Part shown: piece after piece, positions 59,701 through 64,000 of the stretch | How positions within the stretch are numbered: position 1 is the first letter of the stretch | Layout of the letters: every line of letters starts with the position of its first letter | Assembly: GCF_003790525.1 (NCBI RefSeq) | Contig: NZ_CP033635.1 | DNA length: 64,000 nt | Strand: one strand, 5' to 3' | Source of the DNA: Escherichia coli | Lineage (GTDB): Bacteria; Pseudomonadota; Gammaproteobacteria; Enterobacterales; Enterobacteriaceae | Made by a program: the position numbers

Positions 59701-62700
59701 GGATGTCGGGCAAGTGGTGCTACCTGCTTTTTTACACCAGATCGCGCAACCCTAGTCATGAGTTTCCGTTATCTGACCGATGACCATTTTTGGTTTACGC
59801 TGTTTCATGAGATTGGGCATCTCATCTTGCATGAAGCTGTCCGAGTTCGCGTAGAAGGTAAAGATAGTCTTTCGTCGGAAGAGGAAAAGGAAGCAGATAA
59901 ATTTGCCGTTGATGTTCTTATCCCAGAAGAATACCGGCAGCAACTTAGTCGCTATGGTGTCCGGCATTGGAAAGAGATCATCCGGTTAGCTAGGAAAATG
60001 GGGGTATCCAAAGGGATCGTACTGGGATATTTGCAGCATGAAGGTAATATACCTTTTTCTCACCTTAATCGGTTTAAAGTGAGATTCCGTAAAGAAGATA
60101 TCGTCTGATATCAGCCGCCGAAATAGACATAACGGTCAGGTGATTTCTGCCAGTTGCACAACGCATCTTCAATAACCTGCATTCTCAAGTAGGGTGCAGG
60201 AATAATTGCCGCAAGGTCAGCTAGTTTTTCATTCAATACGTCTATTGTGTCACCAGCAGTCCGGCTATTGCTGAAAAGTAGCCGGCTTCCTTGAAGGGGC
60301 CCGGTTGCTCCATTCAGAAAAGCATGACCCGGCTCTACATCCAGAAGTCCCGTTTTCTTGAGCATAGTTAGGTAATCAAATTTTGCGGTTCGTCCAAATG
60401 AGATCACGGCATTTAGCCCTGAATACAATAGTTCGAATAAAGATTCTGGTGAAGATGAAAAGCTCTTGGCCTCTGCAAACCTAGCCTCATGACTGTGTGT
60501 AGCACCAATGAATCCGATGTAAGAGCGAAAAACCGCAGGTATTGAACGACGAGAGTGATATTTCTTCGTTTCATATTTCCGATGGTTACCATATTGTCTT
60601 AGGCTACTGTTAGCTGTCAACTCATCAGAGACGCTGGCGAACCATTGTTCAAAAGCAGCAAAGTCATCAGTTATCGTATCCCATGTCCACGTTTGTGTAC
60701 CGAGTCCACTGTATATATCTCGACACAAAATCCAGCCGGTTTTGTTACTCTTGCCGAAATGTGTGGCAAGGAAAACCAGCCAGCAGGCTTCATCGTAATT
60801 GTTGTCACGAAGATAAAGGCAGGCAGCGCGGAGAGGATCAAAAACATCAGAATTCGGCTCTTTTCGTAACGGAGTCATATAATCGGTCCGTAATGCAAGA
60901 GTTTCCACATAGCGTATACGACGTATACTGTCGATAATCTGACAGGCTAAAACATCAAAGCAGGCAGGAGAACTTAGGCCATTTAGGTTGTGTTCATTGC
61001 GGCTAAAATTTTGCAAATTACTAACCAGCTGACTGATTTGATTATGTCTTTTCATTGTAGTCTTCCTTCAAAAATAAACCGATATTCCTGATTTTTCATT
61101 GCAGCCAACTCTTGGAAGGCTAGTCCTTTGTGGTTGGGTGTATGTGAACGTAACAAAAAGTGGATTTTTAATATACGCAATAAATCCTTCCAGTAGTCAT
61201 TCAAGGAAGTAGTGTCAATATCAAATTCCTTATTCTCTCGAAGAGCTTTTTCTGCCTCAAGCAGGGGTAAGATATCATCTAAGGAATGCATTTCAGGCAT
61301 CGATCCCATGACTGGTAGGGTGCTCATGAACCCCTCTTTCTGAAGAGCCTTCACTTTTTCTAAATCATTTTTATAGAGATGTAGGCTGGATACAAAGTGA
61401 TGATAGTGACCCAATTCGCATCCTATCAAGCGGGCAACTAATTCCTGTAGCATCGTGAACGCAAATACATCATGAGGCAGCCCCATAAAGGCATCGTTAG
61501 AACGCATACAAACAAATAGATGCAGCTCTTCACATCTGACAATAAACTGCATAGATATTGTACAAGGAATATCTACGTATTCTCGCTGTTCAGTTTTTGA
61601 GGGCACCAAGTCTGAGGCATCGAAAAGCTGTATTACTGCACGTCTGGTAGGTTTTTTCTCCTGCAAAAGGTTGATAACATTTTTTAGCTGATTATATAAA
61701 CCACGCATATTAAACAACCGTGGCCCGTAACCACCATGTATTTTCCCATCTGACTCAGCGGATTCAGCGTAACGTGGTATGAAGTGTTTTATAAACTCAA
61801 GATCGTTCTGAGCTGAGAGATACCACAGAAATTCACCTAAGCAACTAATTAGTTTTCCTCGGGATTCTGTTCTACTTATTCTTCGGCGGGGGTCGGTAAG
61901 GACAAGATAGGCACCAAGAATCTCTAGAGTTGATCCTTTTGTAGGATCGTTACTGAGTCCATCCGCTAGGATAGCTTGATGAACATCGTTTATCAGATCG
62001 TCAACACACTCAGCCGTTACCAAAAGAGTCATTTTCTACCTTTTCCTGTATGGTAGTAACTAATCATTACCACCTGTATGGCATATAGTCAATATAGTAT
62101 CAATATCAACATGGTTCACAGGGTAAGTAAGACTTGATCTTACCCAGCAATAGTGGACACGCGGCTAAGTGAGTAAACTCTCAGTCAGAGGTGACTCACA
62201 TGACAAAAACAGTATCAACCAGTAAAAACCCCGTAAACAGCATTCGCCTGAATTTCTCAGTGAAGCCCTGAAACTTGCTGAACGCATCGGTGTTGCTGCC
62301 GCAGCCCGTGAACTCAGCCTGTATGAATCACAGCTCTATGCGTGGCGCAGCAAACTGCAGCAACAAATGAGTTCGTCAGAGCGTGAAAGTGAACTGGCCG
62401 CTGAAAATGCCTGCCTGAAGCGGCAACTGGCGGAGCAGGCAGAGGAACTGGCTATCCTCCAAAAGGCCGCGACATACTTTGCGAATCGTCTGAAATGAAG
62501 TATGTCTTTATTGAAAAACATCAGGCTGAGTTCAGCATCAAAGCAATGTGCCGCGTGCTCCGGGTGGCCCGCAGCGGCTGGTATACGTGGTGTCAGCGGC
62601 GGACAAGGATAAGCACGCGTCAGCAGTTCCGCCAACACTGCGACAGCGTTGTCCTCGCGGCTTTTACCCGGTCAAAACAGCGTTACGGTGCCCCACGCCT

Positions 62701-64000
62701 GACGGATGAACTGCGTGCTCAGGGTTACCCCTTTAACGTAAAAACCGTGGCGGCAAGCCTGCGCCGTCAGGGACTGAGGGCAAAGGCCTCCCGGAAGTTC
62801 AGCCCGGTCAGCTACCGCGCACACGGCCTGCCTGTGTCAGAAAATCTGTTGGAGCAGGATTTTTACGCCAGTGGCCCGAACCAGAAGTGGGCAGGAGACA
62901 TCACGTACTTACGTACAGATGAAGGCTGGCTGTATCTGGCAGTGGTCATTGACCTGTGGTCACGTGCCGTTATTGGCTGGTCAATGTCGCCACGCATGAC
63001 GGCGCAACTGGCCTGCGATGCCCTGCAGATGGCGCTGTGGCGGCGTAAGAGGCCCCGGAACGTTATCGTTCACACGGACCGTGGAGGCCAGTACTGTTCA
63101 GCAGATTATCAGGCGCAACTGAAGCGGCATAATCTGCGTGGAAGTATGAGCGCAAAAGGTTGCTGCTACGATAATGCCTGCGTGGAAAGCTTCTTTCATT
63201 CGCTGAAAGTGGAATGTATCCATGGAGAACACTTTATCAGCCGGGAAATAATGCGGGCAACGGTGTTTAATTATATCGAATGTGATTACAATCGGTGGCG
63301 GCGGCACAGTTGGTGTGGCGGCCTCAGTCCGGAACAATTTGAAAACAAGAACCTCGCTTAGGCCTGTGTCCATATTACGTGGGTAGGATCACATAACCTG
63401 AAATGGCACTAATGGCCAGAGCTTACTAATACATAATCCCTACAGGATGTAGCCACCAGTTTTGTTCATCCGGTATTCTGATTTGGTAACATGCTCCAGA
63501 AAGGAAGAAATATGTACTGCAATGAATTAAAAGAATTTGCGCAAGAGCAGGAACAAAAACTTATCAGTGCGCTTGCTGATACCAGAGAGCACCCGTCCCC
63601 CGATGGTGAAACAAGAAGCCGGGATAATTATCAACGGGATTACGCGCGTATTCTGTATTCATCATCATTTCGCAGGCTGCAGGGAAAGATGCAACTTTTT
63701 GAAATTGATCCTGAAAAATTCAACAGAAACAGATTAACGCACAGTCTTGAGGTTGCTCAGATCGCCCGAAGTATCGCGTCAGACCTCAAACTGATTAACC
63801 CGGTGGTGGTTGAACTGGCAGCGCTGGCGCATGACATCGGAAATCCTCCTTTCGGTCATTCCGGTGAAAAACTGCTTAATGAACTGTCTGAAGAAATCGG
63901 CGGCTATGAAGGTAATGCACAGGCGCTACGTATCCTGAGAAAACTGGAGAAGAAATTTTCATACTGCAACGGATTAAATCTGACTCACCGTAGTTTACTT

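Follow-up and report, generated by a model that had tools for sequence, protein, structure and literature searches.

A frameshifted, mosaic IS3 copy with unmatched flanks in the pheV genomic island of Escherichia coli

The window analysed here, a 64,000-nucleotide stretch of Escherichia coli DNA from contig NZ_CP033635.1, contains a complete IS3 element at positions 62135–63391 (+ strand). The explanation that best accounts for this copy, and in which, taken as a whole, we have high confidence, is that it is a resident, transposase-defective IS3 in the E. coli pheV genomic island, with a fixed lesion in orfA, a mosaic sequence, junctions of separate history, and a position at a rearrangement junction. 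The kind of object is already known: this is an ordinary, already-annotated broken E. coli IS3 copy, and the same-locus copy in other genomes bears the RefSeq label "IS3 family transposase, frameshifted". The value of the result lies mostly in annotation: that is, the copy is to be recorded as a pseudogenised, non-autonomous IS3/IS3H-like mosaic, and as neither an active IS nor a sequencing artefact.

Element boundaries and mosaic structure

The boundaries given by a preliminary, sequence-only reading are exact: TGATC opens the left inverted repeat (IRL) at 62135, and GGATCA closes the right inverted repeat (IRR) at 63391. IRL (62135–62174, + strand) and IRR (63352–63391, + strand) are intact and are the same as in K-12 IS3C; the first 88 bp and the last 44 bp of the element show no differences from that copy, and IRL matches the reverse complement of the right end at 28 of 40 terminal positions. 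Alignment to K-12 IS3C gives a length of 1257 bp vs. 1258 bp and an overall identity of 96.0% (49 substitutions and 1 gap in 1258 columns). The element thus has the length of approximately 1258 bp, the 5'-TG...CA-3' termini, and the imperfect inverted repeats of approximately 39–40 bp that characterize IS3. By the ISfinder convention, isoforms share at least 95% nucleotide identity with the reference element; the window copy, at 96.0%, lies within this limit for IS3, as a borderline case in which identity to IS3H is nearly equal (95.8%).

The distribution of the substitutions is not uniform. All 49 substitutions relative to K-12 IS3 fall within a 233 bp segment of orfA (62257–62489, + strand), and none falls outside it; within this segment the window copy differs from K-12 IS3 at 49 of 233 positions and from IS3H (reference, S. 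sonnei pSS046) at 10 of 233. The mosaic nature of the copy had gone unmentioned in the sequence-only reading. Compared with K-12 IS3 (IS3A–E, insE/insF; IS3 family, IS3 group), the window copy shares the ends, the orfA/orfB layout, the ATGA overlap, the A_AAA_G motif, and the orfB nucleotide sequence, but lacks one A of orfA, is only 79% identical in the patch, and has no 3 bp duplication. Compared with IS3H, which is found in S. sonnei pSS046 and on E. albertii plasmids, the window copy is 95.7% identical in the patch but follows IS3 elsewhere, where IS3H has 39 substitutions and a 3 bp insertion; the IS3H-like character is confined to 62257–62489 and does not extend along the whole element. 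We conclude that the window copy is, as judged by alignment, a recombinant comprising a K-12-identical IS3 backbone and a 233 bp IS3H-like patch, and that the donor of the patch is a relative of IS3H, not IS3H itself.

The downstream part of the element is intact. orfB (62495–63361, + strand; 288 aa) has a nucleotide sequence equal to that of K-12 insF and encodes the DDE/rve catalytic part of the transposase (Pfam rve, 5e-28; NCBIfam transpos_IS3, 3e-101, model positions 90–369 of 369). The A_AAA_G motif at 62461–62465 (+ strand; located by position), which we take to be the IS3 programmed −1 frameshift motif of Sekine and Ohtsubo, is likewise intact, but is out of reach from the orfA start. 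RNA folding of the frameshift region gave non-significant z-scores of −1.4 for the window and −1.1 for K-12, by a minimum-free-energy method that is blind to the known IS3 pseudoknot.

A single-base deletion in orfA

The sequence-only reading held that orfA had lost one base from an A-run, and alignment to K-12 IS3C bears this out, showing a single missing A that is the sole length difference between the two elements. The deletion site is a run of five A residues (A5) at 62224–62228 (+ strand; AGT-AAAAA-CCCC), corresponding to a run of six (A6) in the reference; A6 is found in all five K-12 IS3 copies and also in FORC_028 and DP051. In the translated sequence, the truncated orfA (62200–62271, + strand) begins with ATG at 62200, runs for 23 codons (MTKTVSTSKNPVNSIRLNFSVKP), and ends with TGA at 62269–62271. 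Repair in silico, by putting back one A, yields a 99-aa OrfA free of other lesions, in which Pfam HTH_Tnp_1 spans residues 12–78, and the truncation falls ahead of the HTH domain. The remainder of orfA (62229–62498, + strand) is still open but is out of frame with its own start; its first start codon is ATG at 62367, and the resulting 43-aa ORF lacks the HTH and has no Pfam match. We conclude that the element is a damaged member of the IS3 family (IS3 group) and not a member of a different family, because adding one A restores the orfA/orfB architecture.

The further claims of the sequence-only reading, that OrfA and the OrfAB fusion are abolished and that the copy is non-autonomous, agree with the predicted translation. 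OrfA is blocked at codon 24, before the HTH, and no full-length transposase is encoded; because OrfAB has to be translated from the start codon of orfA, the element cannot make its own transposase. The window copy retains the A_AAA_G motif and the orfA/orfB overlap, but lacks the IS3 arrangement in which an intact phase 0 orfA, with its HTH and leucine zipper, overlaps a phase −1 orfB; the full-length OrfAB expected of an autonomous IS is cut short ahead of the HTH. The window IS3 would now move only with OrfAB from another IS3. In this it resembles non-autonomous IS derivatives, which have intact ends, have no functional transposase, and in principle may be mobilised only in trans; it differs in being full length with one small lesion, and not internally deleted in the manner of a MITE.

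An alternative is that A5C4 is a recoding site and the copy an attenuated IS3 that is still autonomous, with OrfA and OrfAB restored by low-level −1 ribosomal slippage or by slippage during transcription. A slip of −1 on AAA-AAC would indeed return the ribosome to the original frame, and IS3-family elements are known to employ ribosomal as well as transcriptional slippage (PMC6211511, PMC4066793). However, U_AAA_AAC departs from the canonical X_XXY_YYZ heptamer and, for polymerase slippage, an A5 run is on the short side. Moreover, elements of the patch type are not proliferating, having a median of 1 copy per genome vs. a median of 3 for IS3 overall, and the sister copies sampled (on three fec-island chromosomes and on plasmid p537-20_1) are more decayed, having lost the start codon (ATG to AAG) and acquired indels, as neutral decay predicts. 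We count the low copy number and the decay of the sister copies as support for inactivity, and we regard recoding at A5C4 as highly improbable.

A second alternative is that the A was lost through an error of sequencing or assembly in a homopolymer and that the IS3 is truly intact. A/T homopolymers are prone to error on some platforms, and one metagenome contig (L016) has A6 at the same junction; five bases, however, is a short homopolymer, and hundreds of complete genomes from many laboratories share the identical A5 sequence. Searches of complete genomes with the 1257 bp element returned matches that were 100% identical in all 30 of the records listed, with 323 records at 99% identity or higher; the exact matches come from many independent complete E. 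coli genomes and lie at the locus of the window copy. Searches of complete genomes with the A6-repaired element returned no match at 100% identity, and searches with a junction sequence containing A6 returned nothing that outscored the A5 copies and no A6 at the junction. Two further metagenome contigs (L017 and L020) have A5. Contig L016 itself is an irregular canonical/mosaic hybrid with a 6 bp insertion that is at most 97.2% identical to any complete genome; it is probably a repeat-collapsed or chimeric assembly, and for these reasons we dropped it as a candidate repaired copy. The sequence-only reading had named recovery of the full A-run on re-sequencing as the observation that would overturn the lesion, a point that is effectively answered by the occurrence of the same A5 copy in hundreds of independent complete genomes. 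The population data rule out a sequencing error, to which we assign next to no probability. We conclude that the missing base is real and inherited.

Junctions and flanks across genomes

As the sequence-only reading stated, the 3 bp flanks of the element, ACT at 62132–62134 and CAT at 63392–63394, do not match as a duplication. The absence of the 3 bp target duplication of IS3 reflects the history of insertion and not the element itself. A perfect 3 bp duplication is present at only two of the five K-12 IS3 copies (IS3B and IS3E), and therefore mismatched flanks are common in resident IS3 copies.

Comparison across genomes reveals that the two junctions occur both together and apart. The left junction is common to 223 complete E. 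coli genomes, the right junction to 278, and both window flanks surround the IS3 in 184; the right-hand site is present in uninterrupted form, GGCAA-CAT-AACC, with CAT as its native triplet, in about 44 genomes, with CS18F and SCEC020022 as examples of such empty-site strains. The left junction is found with other right-hand partners: in strains 1409 and CS18F these are CAG and a cdiA-CT fragment, and in SCEC020001 they are AGT and ompC. In SCEC020001 a crossover is visible, the final ~190 bp of the IS deriving from another IS3 relative. The right junction is found with other left-hand partners, namely TTT within a MazG-like gene in FORC_028, TTG beside IS1 and fec in EcPF5, UC4224, and ECC-1470, and AAC in DP051. 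An empty left-hand site was found in no complete E. coli genome; the left-flank 30-mer had no match in species-representative genomes, and all five metagenome contigs bearing the flank run directly into IS3. We conclude that the window junctions have separate histories. The mismatch between the flanks is explained by the position of the element, at a rearrangement junction with a left and a right side that also occur apart from each other in other genomes.

A simple insertion, with a 3 bp duplication that later decayed by point mutation, is a vanishingly improbable alternative. K-12 IS3C, with flanks ATC/ACC, has one mismatch, so some decay or imprecision does occur; ACT and CAT, however, differ at two of three positions, yet the flanking sequence around them shows 100% conservation from genome to genome, and the window flanks are contiguous with each other in no genome. 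Decay of a duplication is ruled out by the uninterrupted site, to which CAT is native and in which the upstream sequence (the cdiB side, ending in GGCAA) is unrelated to the left flank of the window.

CS18F suggests a source for the rearrangement. In this strain the left junction, 9,986 bp that are missing from the window, and the empty site occur in the same order and orientation. The present order, with a thymidylate-synthase-like gene followed by ACT-IS3-CAT and then by a dGTPase gene, would derive from an island resembling that of CS18F, with about 10 kb of DNA between this IS3 and the uninterrupted site that precedes the dGTPase gene. The intervening DNA could have been lost in either of two ways, through homologous recombination between this IS3 and another one that had inserted at CAT or through an adjacent deletion mediated by an IS3 end; neither route leaves a matching 3 bp duplication. 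The intermediate predicted by the first route, a simple insertion joining GGCAACAT to IRL, was found in 0 of 5,426 genomes, which leaves the route by recombination of two IS copies without its intermediate and unproven. The second route would need transposase supplied in trans, because the CS18F-type copy also carries the frameshift. Position 63347 is A in the window-type IS3 and C in the CS18F-type copy and in every other CAT-junction copy sampled, such that an extra point mutation or conversion event is needed. The order of events is drawn from a handful of sampled genomes and not from a rooted phylogeny. The window arrangement probably arose either by homologous recombination or by adjacent deletion.

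There are precedents for both routes. Loss of target-site duplications has been ascribed to IS x IS recombination or to adjacent deletion, and adjacent deletions have been documented for the IS3-family element IS150 (PMC11708052). As with IS copies that have no target-site duplication at junctions of IS x IS recombination or adjacent deletion, such as the IS150 deletions in the Lenski long-term lines (PMC11708052), the IS in the window is kept and the flanks differ, DNA is absent relative to related genomes (here, 9,986 bp relative to CS18F), and siblings of the window copy show internal crossovers with other IS3 relatives; in contrast to those junctions, the window junction is natural and widely inherited, and its IS is transposase-defective. 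The mismatched flanks flag a genuine point of rearrangement within the pheV island, usable as a lineage marker, and provide an example of IS3 copies as portable homology that reshuffles defence-island modules.

Neighbouring genes and possible host role

The element lies between a divergent gene of thymidylate-synthase fold on the left (61052–62032, − strand) and, on the right, a dGTPase-family gene of anti-phage type (63512–64000, + strand; PADLOC dGTPase, 2e-109), which starts 120 bp past the end of the IS3 and runs off the window. PADLOC had no match among the left-hand proteins (thymidylate-synthase-like, aGPT-Pplase3, and MazG-like).

This location raises the alternative that the defective IS3 is kept for the host, either by driving or insulating transcription of the dGTPase gene, or through dampening of other IS3 elements by OrfB or an HTH-less OrfA'B'. 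IS3 is said, from work by Charlier in 1982, to be able to act as a mobile promoter, and OrfA and OrfB reportedly inhibit transposition, as attributed to Sekine in 1997. Ahead of the dGTPase gene, the junction of IRR with CAT persists across 278 genomes and at least five left-hand contexts, but linkage and recency explain this conservation equally well, and in about 44 genomes the dGTPase gene is present with no IS beside it. Similarly, orfB is 100% identical to K-12, but this identity could stem from gene conversion by other IS3 copies. No terminator is predicted in the interval between orfB and the dGTPase gene; however, a promoter scan of the IS-flank junctions and the empty site, uninformative as a scan, predicted no promoter-like site across the junction of IRR and flank, no outward hybrid promoter, and no + strand dGTPase promoter. 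We judge retention for such a host function to be improbable.

A related proposal, speculative and unlikely, is that this fossil IS3, lying ahead of the dGTPase-H-NS-ProQ module, may serve as a conserved recombination hinge and possibly as a transcriptional element. If so, the hinge would allow this anti-phage module to be re-joined to various neighbours, among them a thymidine-hypermodification-like module, a fec island, and a truncated MazG-like gene, and a dead IS would be maintained by virtue of its homology or an effect on regulation and not as neutral debris.

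An IS3 mosaic with a single lesion in orfA

Exactly one IS3 element, a damaged representative of a very well known family, fills positions 62135-63391, with start TGATCTTACCC and end GGGTAGGATCA. The element is 1257 bp long, 1 base under K-12 IS3C (L004:101-1358), and the sole length difference is in the A-run of orfA, which reads AGT-AAAAA-CCCC in the window (A5; 62224-62228) and has six A residues (A6) in five of five K-12 IS3 copies and in the intact copies of FORC_028 and DP051. Translation of orfA from the ATG at 62200 yields 23 codons followed by TGA at 62269-62271; with one A added back, it yields an unbroken 99-aa OrfA having Pfam HTH_Tnp_1 at residues 12-78. 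Since the A-restored orfA is uninterrupted, the 1-bp deletion is the only inactivating lesion. Both ends of the element are intact, the A_AAA_G motif lies at 62461-62465, and orfB is intact and the same as K-12 insF (rve, 5e-28; transpos_IS3, 3e-101). The downstream orfA frame has its first start codon at 62367 and encodes at most a 43-aa peptide without an HTH. The results bear out the proposal of the sequence-only reading that a base has been lost from the A-run and that OrfA and the OrfAB fusion have been lost with it: the run is A5 against A6 in the K-12 reference copies, and OrfA is cut short ahead of its HTH. OrfAB is the transposase of the IS3 family, and its N-terminal HTH is required to bind the inverted repeats. 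With OrfA cut before the HTH, the window copy would be unable to transpose alone and would be movable only with OrfAB of another IS3.

Comparison with K-12 IS3C places 49 substitutions in the window copy, all of them within a patch in orfA (62257-62489; 233 bp, 79% identity), and places none in the 122 bp before the patch or the 902 bp that follow it (the whole of orfB among them; both ends are free of substitutions). IS3H (S. sonnei pSS046 copy) has only 10 differences from the window copy inside the patch, whereas outside the patch it differs at 39 positions and by a 3-bp insertion. With an IS3H-like patch and IS3-like sequence elsewhere, the window copy is a mosaic: its backbone is IS3, and part of its orfA derives from a relative of IS3H. 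The sequence-only reading did not remark on this feature.

IS3 copies carrying the patch have a median of 1 copy per genome in 468 genomes, vs. a median of 3 places per genome for IS3 overall, and this single-copy distribution is consistent with immobility. The other patch carriers inspected, namely three chromosomal copies beside fec genes (in EcPF5, UC4224, and ECC-1470) and a copy on plasmid p537-20_1, are decayed further: the start codon has gone from ATG to AAG, and within the first 100 bp of orfA there are two indels, with a 1-bp deletion and an A7C run. The A7C run appears to resemble the IS3H version minus 2 bp; the UC4224 copy also has an extra 4-bp insertion. No intact member of the patch sub-lineage was found among the carriers examined.

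Recurrence of the lesion across genomes

Megablast searches of 5,426 complete E. coli genomes returned 323 records at least 99% identical to the window IS3; full-length (1257-bp) matches at 100% identity were many, and all 30 matches listed were 100% identical. In the genomes inspected, the match at the same locus bears the RefSeq label "IS3 family transposase; frameshifted"; the copy is thus already flagged in public annotation as a frameshifted pseudogene. An A6-repaired query gave no 100% match in the complete genomes, the top matches being A5 copies at 99.7%, and an A6-bearing junction query gave no match better than A5 copies. A5 is also present in two metagenome contigs, L017 and L020, both having the window's left junction. 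Sequencing error as the source of A5 is rejected, since the A5 copy recurs across complete genomes and in these two contigs.

The single exception with A6 is metagenome contig L016 (UMID01000459.1; IS3 part at 1641-2656), in which the left flank matches the window's with 0 mismatches in 1640 bp, and the IS3 has A6 and canonical bases to about 62295, followed by patch-type sequence with a 6-bp insertion. The nearest complete genome to this contig reaches only 97.2% identity. The contig is probably a chimeric or repeat-collapsed assembly, a likelier explanation than natural gene-conversion repair of the frameshift.

Junction history

The triplets flanking the element, ACT and CAT, do not match, as had been noted from the sequence. 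Only two of five K-12 IS3 copies have perfect 3-bp duplications (IS3B in yaiT, ATC/ATC; IS3E in gatR, GTC/GTC); the triplets are ATC/ACC in IS3C and CAC/AAA in IS3D, and the left end of IS3A is damaged. Against this baseline, the ACT/CAT mismatch by itself is unremarkable.

Among the 5,426 genomes, 184 have both flanks around IS3, 223 have the left junction (ACT joined to the left terminal repeat, IRL; queried as the flank together with the initial 27 bp of IS3), and 278 have the right junction (the right terminal repeat, IRR, joined to CAT). The two junctions are distributed separately. The left junction has as other right partners CAG and a truncated VENN-motif (cdiA-CT) gene in 1409, CS18F, and contig L020, and AGT and an ompC-like gene in SCEC020001, which keeps the frameshifted orfA. 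In SCEC020001 the final ~190 bp of the element (equivalent to 63208-63391) belong to another IS3 relative and show 20 mismatches, a clear and directly visible intra-IS crossover. The right junction, upstream of the dGTPase gene, is kept across at least five left-hand contexts in its 278 genomes. In FORC_028 the left flank is TTT, which lies within the MazG-like gene (window position 58490), an arrangement equivalent to deletion of 58491-62134; the FORC_028 IS3 is intact and has a canonical orfA, yet at 62486 and 62489 it shows the bases of the patch lineage, suggestive of a crossover. In DP051 the left partner is AAC, adjoining other IS debris. The chromosomal copies of EcPF5, UC4224, and ECC-1470 also have the window's right junction, with left partner TTG adjoining IS1 and fecIRA.

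In about 44 genomes, including CS18F and SCEC020022, the right site is uninterrupted (...GGCAA-CAT-AACCTG...), with a cdiB-type gene on one side and the dGTPase gene on the other. CAT is therefore a native target sequence, and the sequence naturally to its left bears no relation to the window's left flank. The left-hand module ends at IS3 in every inspected genome or contig having its left flank; an empty left-hand site was not found in any source searched, and neither contiguous window flanks without IS3 nor the simple-insertion junction, GGCAACAT joined to IRL, occurs in any of the 5,426 genomes.

CS18F is the most informative genome for junction history. Its segments are ordered and oriented as in the window: the same left-hand module comes first, then the ACT junction and the same frameshifted mosaic IS3, which differs from the window copy by 3 substitutions. 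After the IS3 come 9,986 bp missing from the window (a cdiA-CT fragment, arcA-arcC-argF and neighbours, an IS66 fragment, a cdiA 5' fragment, and cdiB), and beyond them the CAT site, here empty, precedes the dGTPase gene. We infer that the window arrangement is a derived junction, with about 10 kb removed from a CS18F-like island. Within this explanation, we lean modestly toward a route in which a second IS3 would have inserted at CAT and then recombined with the resident copy: crossovers are visible in sibling copies, active IS3 copies are present in these genomes, and the frameshift is already in the resident copy. An adjacent deletion joining the right IS end to CAT is a possible but rather unlikely route; it would fit the missing simple-insertion intermediate, and adjacent deletions are documented for IS150, of the IS3 family (PMC11708052), but the transposase would have to come in trans. 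Both routes are recognised causes of absent target duplications (PMC11708052), and the mosaic structure and junction history are textbook IS behaviour.

2009C-3133 has the window arrangement, with an IS3 differing from the window copy only at 62412 (C); T at this position in the window is a later SNP (Arg to Cys in the dead orfA). A at 63347 is common to both window-type copies, the base being C in CS18F, 1409, FORC_028, the fec-type copies, and DP051, and requires one extra mutation or conversion event.

Island context and neighbouring genes

The window passes from core chromosome into a genomic island at tRNA-Phe (GAA; 28718-28793, + strand), which forms the island boundary, and the IS3 lies about 33 kb inside the island. 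Collinear strain W2-5 shows the core genes nupG, speC, and yqgA; its tRNA-Phe is followed by genes for a tyrosine integrase, sugar utilisation, a phosphoethanolamine transferase, and a type I restriction-modification system with an AAA ATPase.

The right neighbour, 120 bp from the IS3, is a dGTPase-family gene (63512-64000, +, continuing past the window) that matches the PADLOC dGTPase defence (anti-phage) model at 2e-109. Other genomes have a hypothetical gene after it, along with H-NS-family and ProQ/FinO-family genes. Where the dGTPase gene side meets the IS3, neither a hybrid promoter nor a terminator is predicted, and a regulatory role is thus without support from these predictions.

The IS3 is directly adjoined on its left by a gene pair (60111-62032, -) comprising a divergent thymidylate-synthase-fold protein (81 bits, far under the NCBIfam equivalog cut-off of 327) and an aGPT-Pplase3 / amino-acid:DNA-transferase protein (Pfam, 4.8e-90), a combination typical of phage thymidine-hypermodification pathways. 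Beside the pair are an XRE-M78 peptidase regulator gene (59026-60108, +) and the MazG-like gene (58293-58559, -). The left-hand module sits in a bacterial pheV island, not in an obvious prophage. Elsewhere in the window, a guanidine-II (mini-ykkC) riboswitch match is present at 14804-14850 (-), scoring 50.4 bits (gathering score, 32).
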